Shown piece by piece: positions 4,971 to 19,411 of a stretch of 64,000 bases of DNA. The notes under the pieces are model-generated. The model had not been told where the DNA came from. It saw only the letters and a program-made list of their open reading frames with translations, and searched no databases. The stretch is from NCBI GenBank assembly GCA_900549665.1, contig URPH01000002.1, positions 29,947 to 93,946 on the forward strand, given 5' to 3'. Source of the DNA: an uncultured Lachnospiraceae bacterium (lineage in GTDB: Bacteria; Bacillota; Clostridia; Lachnospirales; Lachnospiraceae). The position numbers were made by a program, and so were the translations under genes. Position 1 is the stretch's first letter. The number at the start of each line of letters is the position of its first letter.

Positions 4971-6222
4971 ATTGTTTTTCTCCTCTTGTTATGTCATGAA
5001 TAAACAGACCACTGCGAAGCTTTGGTTCAAACCATGTGGATTTGGGCGGCATCAGCCGATGTGCATCTGCCACGGCAAACAATTCCCCAATGGAGGTCGG
5101 ATACATGGAAAAAGCACAGGCAGCTCCATCATCCACTCTCTTTTCCAGCTCCCCTAGTCCACGGATACCTCCGACAAACTCGATCCGGTTGTCGGTCGTA
5201 GGATCCTTTATGGAAAACAATTTGTAAAGTACATAATCCTGAAGAATGGATACATCCAGACTTTTTACAACATCAGAATCAAGCAGGTGCTCTTTTGCTT
5301 TCAGACAATACCAGGTATGATCCATATACATGCCAAATGTCCCCTTGTGCCTGGGTGCATACGGTGTATGTTCCGCTCTTGAAATCTCAAAATCTGTTTG
5401 GAGTGCAGTAATCAGACTGTCCTTTGTATAGCCGTTCCACTCTTTCAGTACACGGTTGTAATCTAAAATCTTTAACTCATCATCCGGGAATAAGACCGAC
5501 AGAAAATAATTGTATGCTTCCGATCTGTCATCCTGCGGATACTGTTCCTTACGCTTCAGCGATACTTTAACTGCAGATGCACAGCGATGATGTCCGTCTG
5601 CAATGTAAATAGACTTCATGGCGGCAAACCGTCCCATGATCGAAGCAATATCCTTTTCATCATCTATGATCCAGACCGTATGCCCTACCCGGTCATCGGA
5701 AACAAAATCATAAACCGGAGCTTTTATCATTGTACGCTCTACGATTTTTTTTAATTCATCATCCTTGCGGTATGCCAGAAAAATAGGACCGGTCTGCGCA
5801 TTGGTCGTGTCCACATGACGGATACGGTCAAGCTCCTTGTCCGCCCTTGTATTTTCATGACGCCGGATTGTCTGATCTACATAATCATCCACCAGACAGC
5901 AGCCCACAAGTCCTGTCTGTGAACGGCCGTTCATTGTCAGACGGTAAATATAATAACAGGGCTTTTCTTCTTTTATAAAACGGCCGTCAGCGATCATGCC
6001 GCGCAGCATTTCATCAGCCTTTTGGTATACTTTATCCGAATACATATCCGTATCATCTGTAAACTGTGTTTCCGGCCGGTCAATGTTTAAAAACATATCC
6101 GGATGGCCTTCCACCACTTTTTTAGCTTCTTTGCGACTATATACGTCATAAGGAAGGGATGCGATCTTTGCCTCATATCCTGCCTTTGGACGAATTGCCC
6201 GAAATGGTCTTATTTCTGCCAT
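4960..6222 (-). CDS. DUF1015 family protein
   Basis: Start refined to MAEIRPFRAIRP (ATG at 6222), preceded by ACGGAGGAA. The ORF track's longer start at 6252 lacks an RBS. The N-terminus is typical of DUF1015. Its stop overlaps the glgB start by 11 nt. Confidence 0.7.
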   Translation of the reverse strand: MAEIRPFRAIRPKAGYEAKIASLPYDVYSRKEAKKVVEGHPDMFLNIDRPETQFTDDTDMYSDKVYQKADEMLRGMIADGRFIKEEKPCYYIYRLTMNGRSQTGLVGCCLVDDYVDQTIRRHENTRADKELDRIRHVDTTNAQTGPIFLAYRKDDELKKIVERTMIKAPVYDFVSDDRVGHTVWIIDDEKDIASIMGRFAAMKSIYIADGHHRCASAVKVSLKRKEQYPQDDRSEAYNYFLSVLFPDDELKILDYNRVLKEWNGYTKDSLITALQTDFEISRAEHTPYAPRHKGTFGMYMDHTWYCLKAKEHLLDSDVVKSLDVSILQDYVLYKLFSIKDPTTDNRIEFVGGIRGLGELEKRVDDGAACAFSMYPTSIGELFAVADAHRLMPPKSTWFEPKLRSGLFIHDITRGEKQYDE

Positions 6223-6369
6223 AAATTCCTCCGTATTTTTGTACCGTAACAAGTATTATCTTTAAAAATTATAACAAACTCACAAACAAATGTGAAGTAT
6301 AATCAGCACGGTATTTTGACAGGTCACACAATGAGTGCTACTATAATAATACTAAAGGAGAGACTGACT

Positions 6370-6660
6370 ATGACACAGGAAGACAAAGACTTTTTAAAGC
6401 GTGTTACGACCTATGCAGAAAAAAACTGCAAGGATCTTGATCCCAAAAAGACCAAATCCAGCGTCCGGTTAGACAAAATGATGCCGGTTTTTGAGGAAAT
6501 TGCCAGAGAAAACGGACAGGATGTGGAAGATGTTTTTGTGCGTTACATGGACTTATCCATGGAAGCAGACATGACAAAGGCCGGCAAGGATACCTCTGAC
6601 ATCTTCGATATTCCGGATGGTGAATTCGGAAGTGGCGGATTGGATCTATTCCATTCATAA
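6370..6660 (+). CDS. Small hypothetical protein (~96 aa), acidic
   Basis: ATG at 6370 preceded by AAAGGAGAG. MTQEDKDFLKRVTTYAEKNC... is one of the few plus-strand genes. It is followed by a strong bidirectional terminator. Confidence 0.45.
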   Translation: MTQEDKDFLKRVTTYAEKNCKDLDPKKTKSSVRLDKMMPVFEEIARENGQDVEDVFVRYMDLSMEADMTKAGKDTSDIFDIPDGEFGSGGLDLFHS

Positions 6661-6680
6661 TACCTGATAAAGAACAGATA

Positions 6681-6737
6681 AAAGACCTTCAAAATCTTTT
6701 GTATCATCAAAGGATTTGAAGGTCTTTTTATATTTTT
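6681..6737. terminator. Bidirectional rho-independent terminator between the small plus-strand gene and the SulP gene
   Basis: 13-bp stem aaagaccttcaaa/tttgaaggtcttt, with an A-run on one side and a T-run on the other. Confidence 0.6.
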
Positions 6738-6751
6738 AATAAACAATTATT

Positions 6752-8413
6752 TTATTTACCGGTCTGTTCCAGCAGTTTATTGGCAAATGCCAGAGCATCG
6801 TCAATATGTGCACAGAAATGATCTGCCCCCACCTTGTCCACAAAGCCATCCTTCTGCATCGTATGGTAGGGCTGGTCGTTTACATGTGAAAATACAAGCT
6901 CTACGCCATGTCGTTCGCATTTTTCCTGAAGGTTTTCCAAAGAATGCATAGCTGTTGCATCCAATGCCGGCACACCACGCATACGGATAACAAGCACCTT
7001 GGTAAAGTCCTTTAATGTGATCTCTGCCATTCTGTCAGCCGCACCGAAAAACATCGGTCCGCTGATCTCATATACCCTGATCTGTGTCGGAACACTTCTA
7101 AGCTCGATTGCGTCCGGATCATTTTCATCATCAAAGTATTTCCAGCCACGCACCTCCGATTCATCACTCATACGTTTCATAAACAGTACGCAGGCTGCAA
7201 TCATGCCGGCTTCGATTGCCATAACAAGGTCAAAGATAACGGTAAGTAAAAAGGTCATAACCAGTACAAAAATATCACTTTTCGGCGAGGTCCTGCACAA
7301 ATGCAAAAAGGTCTTAAAGCCGCACATATTGTAAGCAACCATAAAGAGGATGGCTGCGATTGTCGGCATGGGAATCAGTGCCGCATACGGCATCAGAATC
7401 ACGAGTACCAGTACCAGTGTGATGGAATGTACCATTCCGGCGATCGGAGTCCGGCCGCCGTTTTTAATATTGGCAGCGGTTCTTGCGATGGCACCCGTAG
7501 CCGGAATTCCTCCAAACAACGCCGATCCGATATTACCAATTCCCTGTGCAACCAGCTCCATATTGGAACGGTGTCTGGAATTGATCATACTGTCTGCCAC
7601 CACACAGGAAAGCAGTGATTCGATGGCAGCCAGAATGGCAATGGTAAGACCGTCCGAAAATTCCGACCGGATCGTTTCCAGTGTGATATGCGGAATATGA
7701 AAGGCCGGCAATGCAGAACTGATCGTATATAAATCACCGATCGTATTGACATTGAGCTTTAAAAAACGAACCATCAGGATTCCTGCAATAACAGCGATCA
7801 GCGAACCCGGAATCTTTTTACTGATAAAAGGCCAGACAATCAGAATTGCCAGACTGACCATACCAACAAGTACAGCCATCGGATTGATCGTGGGCAGGAA
7901 ACGGATCACAGCCTTTACCTTTTCCATCGTCTCGATCGTGACTGTTCCCGGTGCATAAGTAAGTCCCATAAAGTCCTTTAATTGTCCAATTACAATTGTG
8001 ACGGCAATTCCGGCTGTAAAACCGGTTGTGATCGTATAGGGGATAAATTTGATCAGACTTCCGAGTCTGCAGATTCCCATGATGATCAAAATAATACCGG
8101 CGATCAGAGTTGCAACAATCAGACCATCCATACCGTTTTTTGCCACAATTCCGGCTACGATCGTCGCAAAGGCAGCTGTCGGTCCTGCAATCTGTACTCG
8201 GCTTCCGCCGAAAAACGAGATCAGAAAGCCGGCAACAATGGCGGTATAAATTCCCTGCTCCGGTCCTACTCCGGATGCAAGCGCAAGCGCGATCGAAAGC
8301 GGCAGCGCAATGATAGCCACAATAATTCCGGCAATCACGTCCTTTACAAACTGCTCTTTTGTGTAGGTCTTCATGACACTAAACAACTTGGGCTTTAACT
8401 TTTCTTTTGTCAT
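6752..8413 (-). CDS. SulP family inorganic anion (sulfate/bicarbonate) permease with C-terminal STAS domain
   Basis: 553 aa with multiple TM helices, the SulP signature region (AGPTAAFATIVAGIV...) and a C-terminal STAS-like domain. Confidence 0.85.
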   Translation of the reverse strand: MTKEKLKPKLFSVMKTYTKEQFVKDVIAGIIVAIIALPLSIALALASGVGPEQGIYTAIVAGFLISFFGGSRVQIAGPTAAFATIVAGIVAKNGMDGLIVATLIAGIILIIMGICRLGSLIKFIPYTITTGFTAGIAVTIVIGQLKDFMGLTYAPGTVTIETMEKVKAVIRFLPTINPMAVLVGMVSLAILIVWPFISKKIPGSLIAVIAGILMVRFLKLNVNTIGDLYTISSALPAFHIPHITLETIRSEFSDGLTIAILAAIESLLSCVVADSMINSRHRSNMELVAQGIGNIGSALFGGIPATGAIARTAANIKNGGRTPIAGMVHSITLVLVLVILMPYAALIPMPTIAAILFMVAYNMCGFKTFLHLCRTSPKSDIFVLVMTFLLTVIFDLVMAIEAGMIAACVLFMKRMSDESEVRGWKYFDDENDPDAIELRSVPTQIRVYEISGPMFFGAADRMAEITLKDFTKVLVIRMRGVPALDATAMHSLENLQEKCERHGVELVFSHVNDQPYHTMQKDGFVDKVGADHFCAHIDDALAFANKLLEQTGK

Positions 8414-8463
8414 TTTTTCATTCTCCTCATAAGATATATACTGACATCTCTGTCATTTGCACA

Positions 8464-8499
8464 TAAAAAGATGCTCTGGATTTACCCCTCCAAAGCATC
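8464..8499 (-). terminator. Putative rho-independent terminator overlapping the stop codon of the WYL regulator gene
   Basis: Stem gatgctctgga/tccaaagcatc (10 of 11 bp paired), followed on the minus strand by TTTTTA. Confidence 0.45.
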
Positions 8500-9465
8500 G
8501 GTTAAGGCCTGTTTCATCTGATTTACAACATGTGGCGGAGAAAGGATACAAACCTCTTTCCCCAGACCGAAAATCCATCCGAAAAACTGTTGACTGACAG
8601 TCACGGATACAAAAACAGTAGAATAATCTTTCCCTTTCGGAACAATCATAATATCTTTTCCAAACCGGTCAATAAAAACACCTGCCAGATGGTTTGGAAA
8701 TAAAATCTTTACTTTTTCTTCTTTTCCACCAAACATTCCAAATTTTTTATTGGAATAGGTCGCTATATTTTCCTGCTCAAACGCTTCTTTTCCTTCTCTT
8801 TCCCGGTCAAGCATCGTGATATCGAGCATCTTGTCAACCCGGTAGTGCCGGATGGTCCGGCTCTTTTCATCCCAGGCAATCAGATAATAATTTTCATCAT
8901 TGAAGGACAACATCCATGGCGATACCTCATAAAGCTCACCGCCATGCCGAAGCTCACGCTTTTTTTCGGTATTCCACCGGAAATACCGGAAGCTTATCAT
9001 ATGGTTTTGGGAAATTGCGGACTGGATGGCATCGACCGAATAATAGATGCTTTCGTTGTCCGCCTTGACCCGGTCCTGTACATAGACCTGCCTTTGCAGC
9101 TTTTTGGCATCGTATTCACTGCACTGGCCCTCCAGCTTGGATATCAGCTCCTGCGACTTTTTCAGGGTCAGAAATCTGGAAGTCTGGATCAGGTCTACCA
9201 ACAGCTTGAGCTCTGCCAGTTCAAACTCCCTGGTAAGCAGCCGGTACTCATAAGAGGCGCCTGTCTTTTCTCCCACAACCTCATATCCCAGCTTTTCCAG
9301 ATCACGGAAATCTGCATAAATACTCTTTCTTTCCGCAGAGATATCATGATCCTGTAAATAGGCAAGTATCTCCGGCATGGTAACGGCATGCTCATCATCT
9401 GTCTTTGCCTGCAGAAACTTCAAAAGATAATATAATTTTAGTTTTTGATTGGATCCCTTTGCCAT
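8482..9465 (-). CDS. YafY/PafBC-type transcriptional regulator (N-terminal wHTH plus WYL domain plus C-terminal WCX-like extension)
   Basis: The N-terminal HTH pattern (...MPEILAYLQDHDISAERKSIYADFRDLEKLGYEV...GASYEYRL) and the WYL-type motif (NYYLIAWDEKSRTIRHYRVDKM) support the call. The gene is the last of the cassette, 35 nt after the macro gene with no intervening terminator. Confidence 0.75.
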   Translation of the reverse strand: MAKGSNQKLKLYYLLKFLQAKTDDEHAVTMPEILAYLQDHDISAERKSIYADFRDLEKLGYEVVGEKTGASYEYRLLTREFELAELKLLVDLIQTSRFLTLKKSQELISKLEGQCSEYDAKKLQRQVYVQDRVKADNESIYYSVDAIQSAISQNHMISFRYFRWNTEKKRELRHGGELYEVSPWMLSFNDENYYLIAWDEKSRTIRHYRVDKMLDITMLDREREGKEAFEQENIATYSNKKFGMFGGKEEKVKILFPNHLAGVFIDRFGKDIMIVPKGKDYSTVFVSVTVSQQFFGWIFGLGKEVCILSPPHVVNQMKQALTDALEG

Positions 9466-9500
9466 AATTACTATCTCATAAAAACTTCATTTTGTGTGAT

Positions 9501-10640
9501 TCACTCGGTTATAAAGCCCTTTACCTCACCATAGGCATCAATACCGATGGTATCCCGAAGCTTTGCATCCTCTTCATCGGAAAGCGCTTTCAGTTCGTCT
9601 ACAAATTCATACTCCGTCTTGTCAGCCAGTTGTTTTTTGGCATATGCAGACAATGCACTGTCCTTGATACATACTCTGACAGGAGCTTTGGGTGCCTGAA
9701 CCTCTTCTGCTCTCTCTTCCTGTTCGGGTTCTTCTTTTTTAGACACGGAAACCACCGGCTCGATGTACTCATTGCGGAATTTTTCACGGATTTCAGCAAG
9801 ACATCTACCCAATGCATTATCCTTGCTGTCACCGCCGCACAAGGTGGTATCTCCTGTTGCCAAAAGCTTTCCTCTCAATGCGGGATTTTGTGTATATTTT
9901 GCCATATTTGCTTTTAATAACAGCTTTTCATATTCATTGTAGTCAAACAGATTGTCAGCTCTTTCTGCTTTTAAGTACTCAGCAACGGATTCATAGGAAA
10001 GTCCGTCCAGTACAAAATGAGCCGGATAGGCATTGTTAAAGAAGTATCTGTCATCTTCCTTTTCGGCACCGATTTTAACCATATCCTCTTCTACATCATA
10101 TTTGCTTACCAGATCAGAAAGGCTTTCTTTGTTGGCATCCTTTAAGGCCTGATCATAAGCAAACTTGGTATGTGAATCGAATAATACAAATACAACCTCA
10201 TCAATATCATTCTGATGCTCATTTAAAAATGTGCGTACAGCTTTTACTGCGATTTCCGCAGCCATATATACCGGAAAACGGTAAGCCCCCGTCGAGATTG
10301 ACGGAAAGGCGATCCTGCGGATATTATTTTGAGCGGCTAACTTGAGTGAATTTTGATAACAGGCAAACAACAATGCTCTCTCATCGTTATTGCCGCCGTG
10401 CCAGATGGGACCAACCGTATGGATCACATACTGACAGGGAAGATTGTAGGCTTTGGAAATCTTGGCCTGACCGGTCTTGCAGCCATCGAGTAATTTGCAT
10501 TCCTTTAATAGTTCAGGACCGGCTGCCGCATGAATGGCTGCATCGACACCTCCGCCACCGAGCAGGGTCTTGTTGGCTGCATTGACAATGGCATCCATTC
10601 CCTGCATTTTTGTGATATCCCCCAGTTTTGTTCTGATCAT
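9501..10640 (-). CDS. MacroD-type macro domain fused to a NADAR (YbiA-like, DUF1768) domain, plus an ~90-aa C-terminal tail
   Basis: The N-terminus matches MacroD/YmdB ([39 protein letters not shown]...VIHTVGPIW...[14 protein letters not shown]). The middle matches NADAR/YbiA ([23 protein letters not shown]...[20 protein letters not shown]). A strong GGAGGATG RBS precedes the ATG. The ATG overlaps the Hsp70 stop (ATGA). Confidence 0.8.
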
Positions 10641-12334
10641 AAATCATCCTCCATAAATGTTTTTAAAAAGATGCGGAAGCTCTCTCTGGCTTCATCGATC
10701 ACTTCCTGTTTTCTGGTATCAAGTGCATCGTCAAATTTCTGCAATTCACGCTCGATCATCTTTCTGTCATTGCCAAGGCACTCTTCATATAAACGTTCCC
10801 CTTTTAAAAGTAACAGTTTATTTTCTTCTTTTTCTCTCGGATGGATCTTTAAATATGCGATCTCCTTCATGCGCTCTGCAATCTCTTCATCCGACATATC
10901 ATTGTGTCCGCCCTTGATAATCTGTTTGGTCTTTTCACCTGTTGAAACAACGGTTACCTCTACCTCCAAGATGGAATTGATGTCATAGGTATAGGTGACA
11001 TCTACCGCCTCTTCCCCGGCAGGCGCCTTGGGAATTGTGATCTCTAACTTTCCAAGTAACAGATTATTTTCAGCAAAACGGCTTTCTCCCTGTAAAATCT
11101 TGATATTGAGCTTAGACTGATTGTCCTTAACCGTATAGAGACGCTCGGTGCGGCTGGCGGGAATGGTCGTATTGCGCTCGATGATCGGGCAGAAATGACC
11201 ACCCTCATATACATTTTCTTCTTTTTCAACAACAACCTCGGTTCCCAATGTAAACGGACATACATCCGTAAGTACCACTTCCCGGATCACCTCGTTGCGT
11301 TCCTTCATGGCTCCCTGGATTGCTGCACCCAGAGCCACTGCCTCATCCGGATTGATCGATGTATCGGGCATATTACGGAACATCTTACCGACAAAACGGC
11401 GGATAAAGGACATCTTTGTTGCCCCACCGATCAGCACAACCTTATCTATGTCTTTTACCTTAATATGGGCATCCGATAATGTCCGTTTGATCGGTGTTTT
11501 CATTTTTTCAAGTAAATCGGCACAGGCTGCTTCATAAGCGTCTAAGGAAAGGACAAACTCGATGCTTTCCCCATCCACATTGCAAATCATCCTGGAGGAA
11601 TTGCCATCCGCAAATCCGATCTTGCAAAGCTCTGCCTGCTTGTGGATATGACGAAGTGTCCGGTAGGAAAGCTTGCTGCGGTCAAGCTGGATATTTTTGT
11701 CAAAAAACATATCCTCGATAACTCTGGTAAAATCCTCCCCGCCCAGATAATTGTCTCCGGCGACGGCTCTTACTTCGATAATATTGTCATTGAGCTCCAG
11801 AATGGAAACATCAAAGGTTCCTCCACCCAGGTCAAACACCAGATACTTGGCACTGTCTGTATTTTGGTAAAGACCATATGCGATTGCCGCTGCGGTCGGC
11901 TCGCTGATAATACGTTCCACCTTAAATCCGGCAAGCTCTCCGGCTCTTTTTGTCGCCTTTCTGCGGTCATCATTGAAATAGGCCGGCACACTGATAACAG
12001 CCTCTGTGACCTCCTGTCCCAGATAGCTCTCCGCATCCTCCTTCAATGCTTTTAATACAAGAGCTGACAGCTCTTCCGGTCTGAACTGTTTGTGCAGCAG
12101 CTGAAACTTACGTGAGCTTCCCATATCTCTTTTGAATACGGAAGCGGCACTGTCCGGATATAAAAGCATGCGCTCCTTTGCGGTTTCCCCAATATAAATC
12201 TGTTCATTCTCATCCATGCTTACCACCGACGGTGTCAGATGACTGCCCAGTCTGTTGGGGATAATCCTGGGGCCTTCTTCTGTAAAATAAGCGATCAATG
12301 AATTTGTTGTTCCTAAATCAATACCTACGATCAT
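10637..12334 (-). CDS. Hsp70 family ATPase, short HscC-like form (565 aa), C-terminus ...FMEDDL
   Basis: Phosphate-1 motif IDLGTTNS, phosphate-2 motif [14 protein letters not shown], adenosine motif VLIGGATKM, and substrate-binding-domain beta-sandwich motifs ([16 protein letters not shown]) are all present. The C-terminal lid is short. Confidence 0.85.
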
Positions 12335-12376
12335 AACTTCAAAACTGTCTTTCTATTTCTAATTTCTCAAAGTACT

Positions 12377-15300
12377 CTATTTCCATTCTTTTTTGGATCT
12401 GACAACCTCATCCTTGGCCTTGGGGTCATTTTTGGTAAGAGCAAGTGCTTCGTGATACAGCTTCATCGCATGAAGCTTTTTGCCGTCCATATAATAGTAC
12501 TTAGCATTATGATAACACAATTCATACTTTTTGATAAAGCCCAATTCCAAAAGTTTCTGATATGCTCCGGCTGCGTCCATATAGTTCTTTTCTTTTTCAT
12601 AGCAGCCGATCAGTCTCATCCACAAATCATAATCCTTCGGATAACGGTCCAGCTGCTTTTTGATATATTGTACACAAAGGGCATAGTCCTTCTTTTTTTC
12701 ATACAATTCCGAAAGATAAATATAGACCCTTGTAGGCTCCTCATCGTCTTCCAGCCTTTCAGATATCTTCAACTCTCTTTCGGCCTCATCCAGTCTGTTG
12801 GTCCTTATAAAAATATTTCCGGCATTATTGTGTGCATATACATTATCGGGCTCAAGCTCAGTTGCTTTTATATAATAATGCAGGGCTTTTTCATAATCCC
12901 TGCCAAACTCATACGCCAGCCCGAGTTCTATGGTGTTAAAGGCATCCTTTTCCAGCTCATACATTTTCTTTGCATAAAGAAGTGCACACTGATAGGCATC
13001 ATCCTTCTCTCTTTCCTCTTTTAGGCGAGCTACCTTATAGCGGAAACTCCTGGACAGATAATACAGATTTTCCTGCCCTTTGGGATTGACCTCATATGCC
13101 ATCCTGAAATAATCAATTGCCTGATCAAAAGCTTTACCCTGATCGTCTTCTTTGTTGTAGAAATATTTACCAAGCTTTAAGAAAACATTGTAGCTGTGCA
13201 GATTGAGCGCGACAAGACGCTGATAGCACACCAGAGCCTCATCCTTTTTGTCATTGTCCCATAACACATCACCCATCAGTTCCAAAAGACCGATATCATC
13301 CGGACATCTGACAAGTCCCTCACGGATGCTTTCCAACGCTGTTCTGGAATCGTCCAGGGCAAGTCTGTATAAGGCATCCTCCAAAAACAGCTCACTAAGC
13401 TCTAACGATGTCTCATCTATTTCGTTTTCCCCGGCTCCCGGCTTTTCCGGATTGTGATTTAAAGAGCCGACTTCCGCTTTCTTCTTATCATACTTTTCAA
13501 TATATTGCTTTTTAAACCGGTAAAACTCACAGATCAGAGGTCTCAGTTCTTCATTGTCCGAAGAATGATTGCGTCTGCATTTATAATAATAAAGCTGCAG
13601 GACATCGCTTTCCTGTTTTTCTTCCTGCGCCTGCTCATAAATATTTAAAGCATCTGTATATTGACCCGCATAATAAAAGACCTTCATCGCATACTCATAT
13701 GGCTTGACATATCCTGGGAAAATACGTTTACATTGATAAAAATCATCGATAACGCTCTGTCCCTTATGCATATGAAAAGCAGCTTCCTGACGATGCAGAT
13801 ATGCGGGATAATAAGTTTCGTCCTTTTGGATCAGCTCACTGCAAAGATCATATGCTTTCTGATATTCTTCGTCCTCTATATAATACTGGGCCAGCTGGTC
13901 ATTATATGACATCTGGTACATAACGGCTGTTTCTAATGTCACGCCATCTTTGATTTCCTGTATACCGATTTCCTTTTGTCCCAGATTCCAATGACACATT
14001 CCGACCGAAAAATGAGAAAAGCCTTTCCGGTTCAACTTTTTTTTGCTGTCCTTTGTATGATCATCTACCGTCTGATCGATCATATCACGCCAACGAATCA
14101 GATAAGGAAGCGCCAGATCATATTTTTCCATAGCCAGATAATTGCGCCCCATCAGATTGACAAAATCATATTCTTTAAACTGATCCTCCGGTGCAGCTTT
14201 CAGTGTTTTTTCGACCTGATCAAATTTTTGTTGTTGGAAATAACACCACCCGATTTCAATCCGTGTTTCCGTATCCTCAGGATTGTCATTTAGCATTTCC
14301 CTGTATTGCGGCACCAGACTTTCATTGAGACTGTCCAAAAGATTGTTTAACTTGAAAGAACGGTCTCCCATATCTAAAATATCCAGGCACAGCTCCTTGG
14401 CATCTGCATATTTCCCCTGTTTTTGTCTTGTTTTCAGCATTCCAAGATTTGCCAGATAAGAGGCTTCATCCTGCTTTAACAAACCTTCAAAAATCTGCTC
14501 TGCCACCTCTGTCTTTTGAAGCTCCAGAAATACCAGTCCCGCATAATAACCTGTATAACAGTCGTCCGGATAATCGGAAGCCAGACGGTCAGCAATCTCC
14601 ATGGCGGCATCCGGAAGCTTTTCGGCTTTGCTGCAGATAAGCCAGAAATGCAGCTTTTCCGCATCTGCATACGGATGATGGATCTCGTATGCATCCAACA
14701 GTTCAAACTCATGCCTGATCTCTGATATCCCGGCTGCCGTATCTGTACCATCCGTTTCTGCAGATGCGGCAGGGTCCATCGCCTCTTCCAGTCTGTCAAT
14801 CTGATTTTTGAGATCCAGATAACGGTTTATGTACTCATCAACATGATCCGATACATCACCCTCGAAAATATCATAGTCGATAAAGGAATCATGCTGAATA
14901 TAATAATTAACATATCCTAAAAAATTCTCGGGAAACTTTTCTTTTAGAAGCTCTGTCTCTGCGCAGATATGAAATTTGTCATCCAGGATTTTCCAGATAT
15001 TCCATGGGAAAAAATGATGATCCATGATATAGACAAGCACTCGTTCCTGCAGCTCGCCATCTAAATCATCTTCATAGGAATCCATAAGGCTCTGCCATTG
15101 TGCTTCATCCTTTCTGGAATCCACATCCACGTACAACCGGTTCATTTGATAAATAAAGCGGTCTGTCTCGGAGCCGTCCTTTAATGCCTCAAATGCATCC
15201 TGCAGATCGGCATTTTCCGCTTCATCTTTTTGTTCCGCATAGGATAAAGCATTTTCATATGCCTCTCTCAAGCGCATAAATCCGACCTGATCATCCTCCG

Positions 15301-15400
15301 GATTGACTGATCTTAACTTTTCGTGATACACCTGCCTGATTGCATCTGTATCTTTTGTCTCGGCAATTCCCAAAATCTTCCAAATTTCATATTTTTCCAT
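12377..15400 (-). CDS. Large (1007 aa) J-like-domain protein with an extensive TPR repeat array. The J-domain HPD motif is replaced by NPE.
   Basis: The N-terminus MEKYEIWKILGIAETKDTDAIRQVYHEKLRSVNPEDDQVGFMRLREAYENAL aligns to DnaJ J-domain helices II and III with N-P-E at the H-P-D position. The rest carries many 34-aa TPR-like repeats. The gene has its own promoter region downstream of the serA terminator and an AGGGAG RBS. Confidence 0.75.
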   Translation of the reverse strand: MEKYEIWKILGIAETKDTDAIRQVYHEKLRSVNPEDDQVGFMRLREAYENALSYAEQKDEAENADLQDAFEALKDGSETDRFIYQMNRLYVDVDSRKDEAQWQSLMDSYEDDLDGELQERVLVYIMDHHFFPWNIWKILDDKFHICAETELLKEKFPENFLGYVNYYIQHDSFIDYDIFEGDVSDHVDEYINRYLDLKNQIDRLEEAMDPAASAETDGTDTAAGISEIRHEFELLDAYEIHHPYADAEKLHFWLICSKAEKLPDAAMEIADRLASDYPDDCYTGYYAGLVFLELQKTEVAEQIFEGLLKQDEASYLANLGMLKTRQKQGKYADAKELCLDILDMGDRSFKLNNLLDSLNESLVPQYREMLNDNPEDTETRIEIGWCYFQQQKFDQVEKTLKAAPEDQFKEYDFVNLMGRNYLAMEKYDLALPYLIRWRDMIDQTVDDHTKDSKKKLNRKGFSHFSVGMCHWNLGQKEIGIQEIKDGVTLETAVMYQMSYNDQLAQYYIEDEEYQKAYDLCSELIQKDETYYPAYLHRQEAAFHMHKGQSVIDDFYQCKRIFPGYVKPYEYAMKVFYYAGQYTDALNIYEQAQEEKQESDVLQLYYYKCRRNHSSDNEELRPLICEFYRFKKQYIEKYDKKKAEVGSLNHNPEKPGAGENEIDETSLELSELFLEDALYRLALDDSRTALESIREGLVRCPDDIGLLELMGDVLWDNDKKDEALVCYQRLVALNLHSYNVFLKLGKYFYNKEDDQGKAFDQAIDYFRMAYEVNPKGQENLYYLSRSFRYKVARLKEEREKDDAYQCALLYAKKMYELEKDAFNTIELGLAYEFGRDYEKALHYYIKATELEPDNVYAHNNAGNIFIRTNRLDEAERELKISERLEDDEEPTRVYIYLSELYEKKKDYALCVQYIKKQLDRYPKDYDLWMRLIGCYEKEKNYMDAAGAYQKLLELGFIKKYELCYHNAKYYYMDGKKLHAMKLYHEALALTKNDPKAKDEVVRSKKEWK

Positions 15401-15488
15401 TTAAAATCTCCCTGTTCATTTACAACAATTTTATGAAACCGATTGTCGGAAAGCTGACATCGGTGACCAATATGCCAAAGGACAGACG

Positions 15489-15524
15489 ATAAAATTAAGG
15501 GAAAGATTCTGACATCTTTCCCTT
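15489..15524 (-). terminator. Rho-independent terminator after serA; separates serA from the J-like/TPR–Hsp70 cassette
   Basis: Perfect 11-bp stem aagggaaagat/atctttccctt with loop tctgac. A short T-rich run follows on the minus strand. Confidence 0.5.
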
Positions 15525-15572
15525 ATGGTTTATTTCATTATATACGCACAGAACGGTCTGCCTCTTTTGTGA

Positions 15573-16736
15573 TTATTTTACAACACGTACTCTGAATACA
15601 CCCTCAATTGTTTTTAACTTGTTGATCACATCATCGGTAGCAGCTGCTTCAATATCGAACATGGATACAGCATAATCTCCGCGAGATTTATTGATCATAT
15701 CGGAAATATTGATATTGACATCACCAAAGCATGCAGCAAGCTTTGTGATGGTATTGGCGATATTTTTGTGGAATACGGCAACACGTCCGGCCTTGGTGCA
15801 TACGCCCATATCAATTGCCGGGTAATTTACGGAATGTGTGATATTGCCGTTTTCCAGATAATCAACCATTTCCTTAACACCCATAACCGCACAGTTGTCT
15901 TCGGATTCCTCTGTAGAAGCTCCGATATGGGGTGTCACGATACAACCGGCCTTGCCGGTTGTAATGGTGTTGGGGAAGTCTGTCACATATTTATGGACTT
16001 TGCCTGCCTCAATGGCTGCCAATACGTCCTCTTCCTTGCAGAGCACGTCTCTTGCGAAGTTTAAGATCACAACGCCGTCTTTCATCATGTCGATGGCTTC
16101 TTTGTTGATCATACCCTTGGTAGAATCCAGAGCAGGAACATGTACTGTAATGTAATCACATTCTCTGTAGATATCTTCTACATTGACAACATGCTTAACA
16201 GCGCGTGATAAGCTCCATGCAGCATCTACAGACAGATACGGATCGTATCCGTAAACTTCCATTCCGAGACTGATGGCAGCATTGGCAATTTTTGCACCGA
16301 TTGCTCCCAGTCCGATGACACCAAGCTTTTTGCCATCGATCTCTGATCCGGCAAATTTTTTCTTTTCTTTTTCAGCAGCCTTGGCAACATCTGCATTGCC
16401 GGTCTGGGATTTGACCCATTCGATACCGCCGGTCACATCACGGGCTGCCAAAAGCATACCGCAGAGAACAAGCTCTTTAACCGCATTGGAATTGGCTCCC
16501 GGTGTATTGAACACAACAATTCCTTTCTTTGCAAGCTCATCCAACGGAATATTGTTGACGCCGGCACCGGCTCTGACAACAGCCAGCAGATTGTCGGAAA
16601 ACTCCATGGAATGCATGTCTGCACTTCTGACAAGGATTCCCTCTGCCTGATTGACATCGTCTGTTTTTGTATATTCACTGCCAAAATGATCAAGTCCGAC
16701 CTGAGCAATTGGATTTAAACAATAATACTGATACAT
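15573..16736 (-). CDS. serA: D-3-phosphoglycerate dehydrogenase
   Basis: 2-hydroxyacid dehydrogenase fold with a GLGAIG NAD-binding motif and a C-terminal ACT domain. It sits adjacent to serC. Confidence 0.85.
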   Translation of the reverse strand: MYQYYCLNPIAQVGLDHFGSEYTKTDDVNQAEGILVRSADMHSMEFSDNLLAVVRAGAGVNNIPLDELAKKGIVVFNTPGANSNAVKELVLCGMLLAARDVTGGIEWVKSQTGNADVAKAAEKEKKKFAGSEIDGKKLGVIGLGAIGAKIANAAISLGMEVYGYDPYLSVDAAWSLSRAVKHVVNVEDIYRECDYITVHVPALDSTKGMINKEAIDMMKDGVVILNFARDVLCKEEDVLAAIEAGKVHKYVTDFPNTITTGKAGCIVTPHIGASTEESEDNCAVMGVKEMVDYLENGNITHSVNYPAIDMGVCTKAGRVAVFHKNIANTITKLAACFGDVNINISDMINKSRGDYAVSMFDIEAAATDDVINKLKTIEGVFRVRVVK

Positions 16737-16819
16737 TTTTTCATCCCTCTTTCTGAATCAATATGCCGGACCTGTTTACTGTACAGGTCCCGACATTTTT
16801 ATAATCATCATCGCATGCT

Positions 16820-17902
16820 TTATGAATTTTTAGCTTCAAACTCTTTCATAAATGCAACTAATTTTTCAACACCCTCTCTGGGCATTGCATTGTAAATGGA
16901 TGCTCTCATACCGCCAACGGTTCTGTGTCCCTTTAAGTTGACAAATCCTGCCTCTGTTGCCTCTTTGACAAATTTGGCATCAAGCTCTGCATCACCGGTA
17001 ACGAAAGGCACATTCATAAGCGATCTGTCCTCTTTGACTACAGTTCCCTTGAACATCTTGCTTTCATCTAAGAAATCATATAAGATCTTGGCTTTTTCTT
17101 CATTTTTTTCTTTCATGACAGATAAGCCTCCCATCTTTTTTAACCATTTGAATACCTTGCCACAGATATAGATACCGTAGCAGGGAGGTGTATTGTATAA
17201 AGATTCAGCATCTGCATGGATCTTGTATTTCATCATGGTAGGTGTTCCGGGAAGTACATCCTCTGTGATCAGATCTTCACGGATAATGACGATCACAACA
17301 CCGGCCGGACCGATATTTTTCTGAACTCCACCATAGATCACACCGTATTTGCTTACATCAACAGGCTCTGAAAGGAAGCATGATGATACATCGGCAACCA
17401 GTGTCTTGCCTTTGGTGTCAGGTAATTTTTTGTATTTGGTACCATAAATGGTATTGTTTTCACAAATATATACATAATCCAGATCTTCCGGAATATCAAG
17501 ATTACTGCAATCCGGAATATAAGAGAATGTTTTATCTGCACTGGATGCCAGCTCTACAGCCTCGCCGTAGATCTTAGCTTCCTGATAAGCTTTCTTTGCC
17601 CACTGACCGGTCACAATATAACCGGCTTTTTTGTTTTTCATCAGATTCATGGGGATCATGGCAAACTGCAGCGAAGCACCGCCCTGTAAGAACAATACCT
17701 TGTAATTGTCAGGGATGTTCATTAATTCTCTAAGATCAGCTTCTGCTTCTTTGATGATGTTATCATACACTTTGGAACGATGGCTCATCTCCATTACCGA
17801 CATGCCGCTTCCCTTATAATCTAACATTTCATCTGCAGCTTCTTTTAATACTTCCTCAGGTAAAACTGCCGGACCTGCTGAAAAGTTATAAACTCTGGAC
17901 AC
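16820..17902 (-). CDS. serC: Phosphoserine aminotransferase
   Basis: VYNFSAGPAVLPEEVL N-terminus and class-V aminotransferase features. GTG start with an AAGAGGAGGG RBS. Confidence 0.9.
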   Translation of the reverse strand: MSRVYNFSAGPAVLPEEVLKEAADEMLDYKGSGMSVMEMSHRSKVYDNIIKEAEADLRELMNIPDNYKVLFLQGGASLQFAMIPMNLMKNKKAGYIVTGQWAKKAYQEAKIYGEAVELASSADKTFSYIPDCSNLDIPEDLDYVYICENNTIYGTKYKKLPDTKGKTLVADVSSCFLSEPVDVSKYGVIYGGVQKNIGPAGVVIVIIREDLITEDVLPGTPTMMKYKIHADAESLYNTPPCYGIYICGKVFKWLKKMGGLSVMKEKNEEKAKILYDFLDESKMFKGTVVKEDRSLMNVPFVTGDAELDAKFVKEATEAGFVNLKGHRTVGGMRASIYNAMPREGVEKLVAFMKEFEAKNS

Positions 17903-18007
17903 TGAAAGTCCCTCCTCTTAATATATTATTGCGAATCTGAAATGTATATCAAAAATAACACTTCAAACTCCATTTTAGACTTGTATAAAATTTTCGTCAA
18001 TGAAAAT

Positions 18008-19411
18008 TTAGTAAAACAGGATAACCGGGGTGCCGATTTCTACCATATCATATAACTTGCTTACCTCTGAAATCGGTGTATTGATACACCCGTGTGACCC
18101 GTTTGTTTTGTAAATTTCACCACCAAACCTGCCTCGCCAGTTGGCATCATGGATCCCGATATTGTTGTAGACAGCAATCCAATATGAAACCGGAGTACGG
18201 TAATCTGCCCCGATCAGCACCCGGTTTCTCTGCATATAATATACATAGCACACCCTCTGCGGGGTTCCGTTTCCTTTTCCGGTACAGCCGGTCACGACGG
18301 GTGTCTGAAGCTTGATCCTGCCATTGACATAATAATACATGGTCTGGTTGGTCATATCCACTTCAATATAAGTATTACCTATATCATTACTGCCTTTTCC
18401 ATAGCCTCTCTGGCTGTAGATTGCCTCGGATTTATCACTTTTTTTGTCATTTATCAATGTAAGCAGGTATTCCTTCTGCTTTTTCTGATCCAGTTTATAT
18501 CCATAATTACCTTTTTCAATGACAACCGTACCGCCCCGTGTAGGGTTGAACTGCCATGGACCGCCTACACTGTCATGCCTGTCTGCCCACTTTTGCACGG
18601 TCATTGCAACAGCCTCCTCATCGATCATGAGATTGCCGTTGTCATCAAAAGAAAACTCACCCTTATCATCTTTTGAAATCCAGGAAGCGATCACAGACGC
18701 ATCCACCGTTTCATCACCATCATAAAAGCAACAGACAATTTCTACACTCTGCAGGTTATCGATCTTTTTCCAAAGTCTGAGTGTCTTTTTCATTTTGGCA
18801 GTATATTCCATCGGAATATAGCAGCCCGCATCGGCCAGATTTACACAGGTATCACCGTTTAATACAGCATCAACAACCGTCTGTATGGTAAGATCCACAT
18901 CTAAAAGATCCTTTGTTTCATCTATCAACTGATACCCGTCTTTGGATCTGACGATTTCCACACGCACCTTTTCCGGATCCGCCTGATTTTTGATCAGATC
19001 AAGCTCATTCAGATAATCTCTGAGCATTTCCTCGTTGCATGTCCCCTTTGGTTCAACCGTTTCATCCTCAATGTCAGCATATGCTAACTTAATTCCCCAC
19101 ATAAGCGGATTTTGCTTTTGCAAAATCCTGTCTAAATCGTCCATATAGGAATAACGGTAATCCATTTCCATAATCGGAATTTCCGTTTCCCTTCCGGACT
19201 TATCTATGATGGAAAAGGCTGCATCTTCTGTTTTCTGAACCAATAAATCATTGACCTCGTCCGGTGTCATTCCTGCCGCATAGATACCGTTTATCATCAC
19301 ACCGTTCATATAGGTATCATGATACTGCCATGCAATATACAGATAGATACCGGCGCATAAAACAACTGGGACAAAAATGATAATTGCCAAAACTGTAATA
19401 ACCTTTTTCAT
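18008..19411 (-). CDS. L,D-transpeptidase family protein (YkuD catalytic domain) with N-terminal membrane anchor
   Basis: The C-terminal catalytic motif ...GIHDANWRGRFGGEIYKTNGSHGCINTP matches the L,D-transpeptidase HxxxxxxSHGC signature. An N-terminal TM helix is present. Confidence 0.75.
   Translation of the reverse strand: MKKVITVLAIIIFVPVVLCAGIYLYIAWQYHDTYMNGVMINGIYAAGMTPDEVNDLLVQKTEDAAFSIIDKSGRETEIPIMEMDYRYSYMDDLDRILQKQNPLMWGIKLAYADIEDETVEPKGTCNEEMLRDYLNELDLIKNQADPEKVRVEIVRSKDGYQLIDETKDLLDVDLTIQTVVDAVLNGDTCVNLADAGCYIPMEYTAKMKKTLRLWKKIDNLQSVEIVCCFYDGDETVDASVIASWISKDDKGEFSFDDNGNLMIDEEAVAMTVQKWADRHDSVGGPWQFNPTRGGTVVIEKGNYGYKLDQKKQKEYLLTLINDKKSDKSEAIYSQRGYGKGSNDIGNTYIEVDMTNQTMYYYVNGRIKLQTPVVTGCTGKGNGTPQRVCYVYYMQRNRVLIGADYRTPVSYWIAVYNNIGIHDANWRGRFGGEIYKTNGSHGCINTPISEVSKLYDMVEIGTPVILFY

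Follow-up and report, generated by a model that had tools for sequence, protein, structure and literature searches.

We analysed a 64,000-nucleotide (nt) stretch of contig URPH01000002.1 (GCA_900549665.1) from an uncultured Lachnospiraceae bacterium, referred to here as the window and used for all position numbers, and in particular a cassette of four minus-strand genes within it. The cassette encodes a J-protein with tetratricopeptide repeat (TPR) arrays, called the giant below, an Hsp70, a macrodomain (Macro) protein with a NADAR-like module, and a WYL-domain regulator. The open reading frames (ORFs) lie at 12377–15400 (1007 amino acids, aa), 10637–12334 (565 aa), 9501–10640 (379 aa) and 8482–9465 (327 aa), and the gaps between them in this order are 42, −4 (an ATGA overlap) and 35 nt, exactly as an earlier note on this DNA had described. 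The features of the region are as follows, where L028 is the closest species-level relative.

15496–15525, minus strand: terminator-like hairpin and T-run after serA, with a 12-pair stem; upstream boundary of the unit, shared by the window and L028
15401–15495, minus strand: intergenic leader 5' of the giant gene; promoter presumed, and only the last ~35 nt conserved with L028
12377–15400, minus strand: 1007-aa DjlB/DjlC-type J-protein (the giant), with a J-like domain, a DjlB_C helical region and long TPR arrays
15221–15400, minus strand: J-like domain of the giant, residues 1–60, with N33-P34-E35 instead of HPD
10637–12334, minus strand: 565-aa HscC-type Hsp70 with a conserved acidic/hydrophobic C-terminal tail
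10131–10640, minus strand: MacroD/YmdB-type macrodomain, residues 1–170 of the 379-aa protein, whose start is joined to the Hsp70 stop by an ATGA overlap
9771–10073, minus strand: NADAR-like module, residues ~190–290, shortened and probably inactive, with a sub-threshold Pfam NADAR score, a fold match and deletions
9504–9770, minus strand: clade-specific C-terminal tail, residues 291–379 of the 379-aa protein, found only in P0041–P0046
8482–9465, minus strand: 327-aa WYL-WCX transcription factor with a putative N-terminal helix-turn-helix (HTH), with matches to Pfam WYL and WCX and to PADLOC WYL models
8470–8499, minus strand: terminator-like hairpin with an 11-pair stem and the WYL stop codon in its loop; downstream boundary, kept in all cassette-bearing relatives
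6752–8413, minus strand: SulP/STAS anion transporter, outside the four-gene cassette, with the same species distribution as the Macro/NADAR-like and WYL genes

Judged by this layout, the four genes look like one transcription unit, as the earlier note had proposed, and they are probably co-transcribed. The terminators said to bracket the cassette were recovered: the two bounding hairpins have the longest stems among the terminator-like sites in a 10-kb scan and are conserved in relatives, and the number of such sites in these 10 kb (11) is not above the shuffle expectation of 8.6 ± 3.8. The claim of a dedicated promoter at 15401–15488 fared worse. The promoter scan gave no sigma-70-like hit on the minus strand of the 15401–15495 leader, and this leader is poorly conserved even in L028, so the promoter is presumed rather than shown. 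Moreover, when four spacers (serA-giant, giant-Hsp70, Macro-WYL, WYL-SulP) were compared by phylogenetic footprinting, conservation was confined to terminators and ribosome-binding regions, with no conserved inverted repeat upstream of the giant. No RNA family was found in an Rfam scan of positions 5000–19000. One 8-mer, GATGTCAG, arose from a check for GATGCTAG-like motifs and was considered as a candidate operator, having three intergenic copies that flank the cassette (8441–8448, 15454–15461 and 15509–15516). It was rejected: the whole window holds five matches against 2.2 expected, 8 of 100 shuffles reach five, and the copy nearest the presumed promoter is not conserved in L028.

Distribution of the four genes among related loci

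A profile built from 21 giants (alignment A1) was scanned over one genome per GTDB species, and 498 species genomes, mostly of Lachnospiraceae and other Clostridia, were found to encode a relative of the giant. The best 80 of these 498 loci were fetched, and the window proteins were run against them by tblastn. The Hsp70 gene (64–98% identity) lies directly 3' of the giant in 76 of the 80 loci, while in the remaining four the contig stops within the giant or just past it. In contrast, the macrodomain, the NADAR-like/tail region, WYL and SulP are present in four of the 80 only, namely L020–L022 (giant 62% identical) and L028 (84%), all of which are close relatives. The earlier note had grouped the four genes as one cassette and had set a lack of co-occurrence in related genomes beforehand as a refuting outcome. 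The Hsp70 accompanies the giant in all 76 evaluable loci, whereas the Macro/NADAR-like and WYL genes do so in 4 of 80, and these four also have the unrelated SulP; a co-occurring four-gene system was thus not found.

The gene order in more distant clades points in the same direction. In the clades with 40% and 33% giant identity, the genes run serC-serA-giant-Hsp70-small ORF-DUF1015-glgB, and the three extra ones are missing. Since the serA-giant-Hsp70-DUF1015-glgB order is kept in clades that lack the block, the giant and the Hsp70 belong to the conserved synteny, which contradicts the idea that the whole cassette is the only block in the window outside such synteny. Most parsimoniously, the Macro/NADAR-like, WYL and SulP genes entered as one block between Hsp70 and DUF1015, and we infer insertion as the direction of this change. 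SulP thus seems to have arrived in the same block as the Macro/NADAR-like and WYL genes. A phage or mobile origin of the added genes was also considered and rejected: for neither the Macro/NADAR-like protein nor the WYL protein were close relatives found in viral contigs, and the base composition of the region is unremarkable, with no compositional anomaly.

Within the cassette-bearing clade, where the giants are 52–98% identical, neither the five-gene order nor the ATGA overlap varies. More distant giant-Hsp70 pairs sit among unrelated neighbours, and one paralogous giant stands alone. In other species the first gene 3' of the Hsp70 is varied and often lies 7–48 nt away on the same strand. 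Read from their translations, these downstream genes were labelled as GGDEF-EAL, ABC transporter, helicase-like, S9 peptidase, RluA, CobU-like, RelA/SpoT-like and FtsH proteins and as a 91-aa acidic protein, the last of which has no Pfam match. As tight spacing after the Hsp70 is common with unrelated genes, close packing is no evidence of function. The sole defence-like neighbour among the downstream genes seen is a 1010-aa protein at L070 (14049–17081), which starts 31 nt after the Hsp70 and by inspection has superfamily-1 helicase motifs and a C-terminal endonuclease-like region.

The DjlB/C-type J-protein and the HscC-type Hsp70

The giant had been described as a protein with a J-like N-terminus, a non-canonical motif and TPR arrays, and this description holds. 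In BLASTP comparisons, its first ~55 residues are 40% identical to Escherichia coli DjlB (E 1e-12) and 44% identical to DjlC (E 5e-13), and the Pfam DnaJ score of the N-terminus is 20.4 bits, under the gathering score of 27.8. The AlphaFold2 (AF2) model of residues 1–260 is all-helical (pLDDT 87), and in a Foldseek search of this model the N-terminus matches the J-domain 2och (TMt 0.66). Collectively, these similarities point to a real but divergent J-domain homologue. The J-domain aside, the same search of residues 1–260 found no solved relative of the DjlB_C region. PF27158 (DjlB_C_2nd) is present in all giant homologues without a weak or faint mark, according to precomputed Pfam matches that cover the homologues and leave the window protein itself unscored. 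Furthermore, many TPR families exceed their Pfam thresholds in the giant, and by inspection its C-terminus is charged (…KNDPKAKDEVVRSKKEWK) and has no DjlC-type membrane tail anchor.

The tripeptide at the HPD position of the giant is NPE (N33-P34-E35, window 15296–15304), and it is invariant in 92 of 92 related loci, which comprise the 80 species loci and 12 metagenome contigs (L001–L012, L020–L099). At this site, which lies between helices II and III, the E. coli proteins DjlB and DjlC have HPE, so the NPE of the giant is neither HPD nor HPE. According to a 2026 J-protein review (PMC13254874), HPE is the sole replacement of HPD known to be tolerated, and other deviations are enigmatic. An HscC-type Hsp70 adjoins the NPE giant at every locus whose contig allows the check. 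Between the window and the L020 clade the giants are 62% identical, compared with 93% for Hsp70, 92% for serA, 89% for SulP, 80% for WYL and 78% for DUF1015; with an identity so far under that of its neighbours (62% vs 78–93%), the J-TPR protein evolves much faster than its surroundings. One metagenome contig from the cassette clade, L111 (1–2772), has the giant as two separate ORFs of 635+ and 321 aa, owing either to a frameshift, possibly a sign of decay, or to an assembly error.

The 565-aa protein scores 443 bits against Pfam HSP70. It is 42% identical to E. coli HscC over 556 aa (417 bits) but 35% identical to DnaK (315 bits), and it falls under the NCBIfam cut-offs for both DnaK and HscA. 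In the alignment with DnaK there is a 26-residue gap at DnaK 76–101, in lobe I of the nucleotide-binding domain, whereas no gap occurs there in the alignment with HscC; additionally, loop L1,2 of the substrate-binding domain has a 5-residue insertion relative to DnaK. The hallmarks of HscC proteins are a length of 550–580 aa, a deletion at DnaK 76–101 and a 4–8 residue insertion in L1,2 (Mayer review, PMC8215388), and the Hsp70 of the window and its homologues (561–566 aa) lie within this length range. The HscC-like assignment made earlier is therefore upheld. Together with the DjlB/C-like J-domain, the HscC identity and the two indels identify the pair as a DjlB/C-HscC system; on the strength of these alignments it is the Lachnospiraceae version of E. 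coli DjlB/DjlC-HscC and hence a known kind of Hsp70/J pair.

At its C-terminus (window 10640–10670), the Hsp70 carries a conserved acidic/hydrophobic tail, F[KR]xFLExxEE(x) in the Hsp70 genes of L001–L099 and FMEDDL in the window. This tail is reminiscent of the EEVD tails bound by eukaryotic TPR co-chaperones, and the partner J-protein has long TPR arrays.

Comparison with the E. coli counterpart, which comprises HscC (Hsc62), its J-proteins DjlB (YbeS) and DjlC (YbeV) and, as neighbours, the Sel1-repeat proteins YbeQ and YbeT (Kluck et al. 2002, reviewed in PMC8215388), reveals both shared and divergent features. As in E. coli, the Hsp70 is short (about 560 aa), lacks the DnaK 76–101 segment, carries an L1,2 insertion and ends in an acidic/aliphatic tail; a dedicated J-protein with a non-canonical HPD motif and a DjlB_C region lies alongside, and TPR-like repeats are encoded in the locus. 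In contrast to E. coli, where J-proteins of roughly 480 aa (DjlC being membrane tail-anchored, PMC8215388) are accompanied by separate Sel1-repeat proteins, the J-domain, DjlB_C and about 700 aa of TPR are combined here in one soluble 1007-aa protein. Furthermore, the tripeptide is NPE here and HPE in E. coli DjlB/C, and the gene order here is J-protein then Hsp70 in one operon. As for the DUF1266 partners of the E. coli system, no Pfam DUF1266 was found in the four cassette proteins, and none is listed in the precomputed Pfam matches of the related loci. An E. coli hscC mutant is sensitive to ultraviolet light (UV) and Cd2+, and the physiological role of HscC is poorly understood (PMC8215388). 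In PADLOC, the giant and the Hsp70 give no match past the 15-bit TPR noise, and a literature search found no paper linking HscC to phage defence.

The Macro/NADAR-like protein and the WYL regulator

The macrodomain of the 379-aa protein is well defined. It scores 151 bits against Pfam Macro (gathering score 22) and 212 bits against the NCBIfam equivalog for O-acetyl-ADP-ribose deacetylase, NF001664 (cut-off 200), and its catalytic motifs N…GGGVD and ISTG are nearly invariant in alignment A2. The NADAR assignment is less straightforward. Pfam NADAR (PF08719) gives 30.7 bits for the whole protein and 33.5 for the isolated segment, under the gathering score of 35.1, with only profile positions 90–131 matching well, and the NADAR-like/tail segment retrieves nothing from the PDB by sequence. 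The AF2 model of residues 170–379 has a mean pLDDT of 69, with 83–93 in the core and low to moderate values in the tail. In Foldseek, its only meaningful PDB matches are E. coli YbiA (2b3w; E 2e-3, probability 1.0, TMt 0.52) and a Phytophthora NADAR protein (8bau; E 9.6e-3), and the domain is ~60 residues short. Alignments with YbiA and the canonical fusions reveal two deletions: one of ~19–28 residues between helices and one of ~23–36 residues covering the D..WG.G loop.

The catalytic Glu and Lys of NADAR correspond to Pn E43 and K50, and the Glu/Asp/His of the last strand to Pn E125 (PMC11543638); these roles are taken from Schuller et al. 2023, and the last-strand Glu defines the YbiA subfamily. 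Across the clade of the window protein, the first catalytic Glu is replaced by Ala, Ser or Thr and the last-strand Glu by Gly or Ser, while the position of the phosphate-binding Lys stays Lys or Arg. By fold and motif, the module appears to be a real but divergent NADAR homologue, and the third gene to descend from Macro-NADAR fusions. It is probably a non-catalytic remnant, which may still bind ADP-ribose. Of the Macro-NADAR fusion announced in the earlier note, the descent stands and the fold is probably NADAR-like, whereas both catalytic Glu residues and two segments are lost and the score stays under the Pfam threshold, an outcome that the note had also listed as refuting.

The last ~90 residues form the clade-specific tail, a disordered acidic linker followed by three helices in the AF2 model, and full-length relatives of the 379-aa protein occur only in the cassette (P0041–P0046). 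Other Macro-NADAR fusions are 40–45% identical over ~77% of the length and lie in other settings without Hsp70. Compared with the canonical fusions (for example P0050, P0063 and P0087; 450–650 aa), the macrodomain is 55–65% identical, the domain order is the same, and the N- and C-terminal NADAR motifs can be aligned; in contrast, the window protein has lost core segments of NADAR along with both catalytic Glu residues, and an unrelated 90-aa tail replaces the long C-terminal domain. A consistent pairing of Macro-NADAR with WYL was considered and dropped, being found in only one of three other neighbourhoods. That one, at L019 (6001–11171), contains a 593-aa Macro-NADAR protein, an ADP-ribosylglycohydrolase (ARG), a WYL-WCX protein with a C-terminal helix-hairpin-helix, DUF503 and a LigT 2H phosphoesterase, and looks like the ARG-centric systems of Iyer et al. 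2022. At L102–L104 (1045–9657), a canonical 588-aa Macro-NADAR protein lies between GmrSD (split N and C parts), an HNH protein and AbiH in a defence-island-like setting, and the third neighbourhood is near DUF87 and HAD genes.

The fourth gene encodes a WYL-WCX regulator, as anticipated: Pfam gives 56.8 bits for WYL (gathering score 21.8) and 28.7 bits for WCX (gathering score 23.9). Two generic CRISPR-associated WYL models of PADLOC score 102 and 73 bits, and PDLC01457, a full-length WYL model, spans residues 14–312; of the four proteins, PADLOC recognises this one alone. The N-terminal 147 aa have no Pfam HTH match. With WYL settled, the domain searches leave HSP70, Macro, WYL, WCX and TPR above threshold and DnaJ and NADAR below it. 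The closest solved relatives of the protein are DriD-type WYL proteins and PafC, at weak similarity (E about 1e-4). DriD and PafC are DNA-damage-response regulators. The architecture of WYL plus WCX, with a putative DNA-binding region at the N-terminus, resembles that of DriD, PafBC, BrxR and CapW; unlike these, homologues that are ~60% identical stand alone in many Lachnospiraceae and are not attached to a defence or damage operon. Such homologues are very abundant in the family, and in the two contexts examined the gene stands by itself, away from any Hsp70 or Macro gene.

The Macro-WYL spacer is 118–120 nt long and near-identical among the four loci of the 62% clade (L001 13830–13945 and the equivalents in L020–L022), and 35–38 nt long in the window and L028. 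The longer form may hold a WYL promoter or operator. At L016–L018 (6001–8191), a 60%-identical WYL homologue is followed by two tandem DUF3841 genes without other Pfam match; in our literature search DUF3841 was mentioned in no paper.

Interpretation of the locus

Collectively, these results favour, with a probability of about 0.7, a composite origin of the region from two unrelated modules that would now share a transcript: a conserved DjlB/C-HscC operon that in one clade gained a Macro hydrolase, a WYL regulator and a transporter. The cassette is probably not a new four-part system; the dedicated four-component reading is unsupported, and the comparative evidence lends no support to mechanistic dependence between the two modules.

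The first module is old, widespread and self-contained, consisting of an HscC-type Hsp70 and a dedicated DjlB/DjlC-type J-protein fused to a TPR array. The N-terminal J-like domain, in its NPE variant, is predicted to dock on the Hsp70, and the TPR arrays would select clients or bind the acidic C-terminal tail of the Hsp70, which would in turn remodel clients using ATP. This scheme would mirror that of the E. coli system, where HscC is paired with DjlB/DjlC and Sel1-repeat proteins lie nearby. The second module is a clade-limited block of three genes, a MacroD/YmdB-type hydrolase predicted to act on ADP-ribose or O-acetyl-ADP-ribose, the WYL-WCX regulator and SulP, in which the Macro gene presumably became translationally coupled to the Hsp70 gene. 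Given this coupling, the Macro protein is probably co-expressed with the chaperone pair. The macrodomain would be an active hydrolase. Homologies, gene order, distribution and motif states are observed, and the biochemistry throughout this scheme is predicted.

Several points weigh against such a composite. The ATGA overlap and the lack of an internal terminator are conserved across the whole cassette clade (giant 52–98% identity), so that co-expression is likely and may point to a recruited function. Only in this context is the Macro/NADAR-like protein with its additional tail found, as would fit an adaptation to the chaperone operon. A published prediction ties ADP-ribose erasers, WYL factors and chaperones together (Iyer et al. 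2022, PMC9503650), and the UV/Cd sensitivity of hscC mutants and the kinship of the WYL protein to DriD and PafC suggest a thematic link.

These points lead to the alternative that the four genes form one stress-response operon against ADP-ribosylation, such as that by ADP-ribosyltransferases of phages or competitors, or linked to DNA damage. In this scenario, the WYL protein would sense an ADP-ribose-derived ligand or single-stranded DNA and de-repress the operon, Macro would strip ADP-ribose from proteins, the NADAR-like module and tail would bind modified targets or dock on the chaperone, and the HscC/J-TPR pair would refold or release modified proteins. The operon would then correspond, with Hsp70 as its chaperone, to the ARG-centric systems that Iyer, Burroughs, Anantharaman and Aravind predicted (Iyer et al. 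2022, Viruses 14:1977, PMC9503650). Those computational predictions describe systems that would counter viral ADP-ribosylation. Built around an ARG, they also contain a regulator of the WYL or Nudix type, which is believed to be an ADP-ribose sensor, along with phosphatases and peptide-binding chaperones (vWA, SseB, TY-Chap); a Macro or NADAR domain is added occasionally. The earlier note had known of no described system that pairs these modules, yet section 3.8 of that paper (PMC9503650) already couples ADP-ribose erasers, WYL and peptide-binding chaperones, though not Hsp70/J.

The cassette resembles this published template. Both bring together in one neighbourhood an ADP-ribose-removing enzyme, a WYL one-component regulator and a chaperone without a linked transferase, no ADP-ribosyltransferase domain being present in the four proteins; in the template, the chaperone is of the peptide-binding kind, the regulator may be a Nudix factor in place of WYL, and Macro or NADAR joins the eraser in some cases. 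The co-residence of Macro-NADAR, ARG and a WYL protein at L019, the gene order, ATGA coupling and flanking terminators conserved in the clade, and the tail of the Macro protein, unique to this context, also speak for one operon of this kind. However, the core ARG enzyme (PF03747) and the phosphatase of the published systems are absent from the four proteins by Pfam, the chaperone is an Hsp70/J pair, and the set occurs in one narrow clade rather than recurring across phyla. No more than four of the 80 species combine the chaperone pair with the extra genes; as these species are all close relatives, one evolutionary event would fit the pattern, and the unrelated SulP has the same distribution. 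Moreover, there is no conserved operator upstream of the giant, two of the three other Macro-NADAR neighbourhoods have no WYL gene, WYL homologues are mostly standalone, and the giant and the Hsp70 stay within PADLOC noise. A single stress operon is hence unlikely on our assessment. A more specific form, in which the HscC/J-TPR operon has taken up a WYL sensor and a Macro hydrolase whose NADAR remnant only binds and whose tail serves for docking, and in which the ensemble answers ADP-ribosylation of host proteins or DNA damage by way of the Hsp70, is quite unlikely in our view.

It is also quite unlikely that the Macro/NADAR-like and WYL genes are an autonomous two-gene module, an ADP-ribose hydrolase with a regulator of its own, that landed here by chance, with the WYL protein autoregulating and controlling only Macro or distant targets. 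In its favour, the strongly conserved 118–120-nt spacer of the 62% clade has room for a promoter or operator, L019 combines Macro-NADAR and WYL in one cluster without Hsp70, and WYL factors commonly adjoin what they regulate (Makarova et al. 2014, as cited by Iyer et al. 2022). Against it, the spacer of the window and L028 is just 35–38 nt and gives no promoter-like hit, the Macro gene overlaps the Hsp70 stop codon and so has no upstream intergenic DNA of its own, no close Macro/NADAR-like/tail homologue lies outside the cassette, so that a mobile pair is not observed, and no relatives were found in viral contigs.

On the composite reading, the four-gene set is most likely a lineage-specific juxtaposition of limited importance as it stands. 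If Macro and WYL had truly been recruited, they would provide the first concrete physiological context for an HscC-type Hsp70, and the recruited operon would parallel the predicted ARG-centric systems in a chaperone-coupled form. The conserved chaperone pair is the more useful part of the locus: the invariant NPE in HscC-paired J-domains, at a position where HPD is regarded as essential, offers a clean natural experiment on whether departures from HPD are under selection and have a function. Such pairs also occur in other arrangements. At L009/L010 (7001–17072), a giant-Hsp70 pair is directly followed by HSP20, and a second DjlB-like giant lies ~5 kb downstream, past an isocitrate/isopropylmalate dehydrogenase gene.

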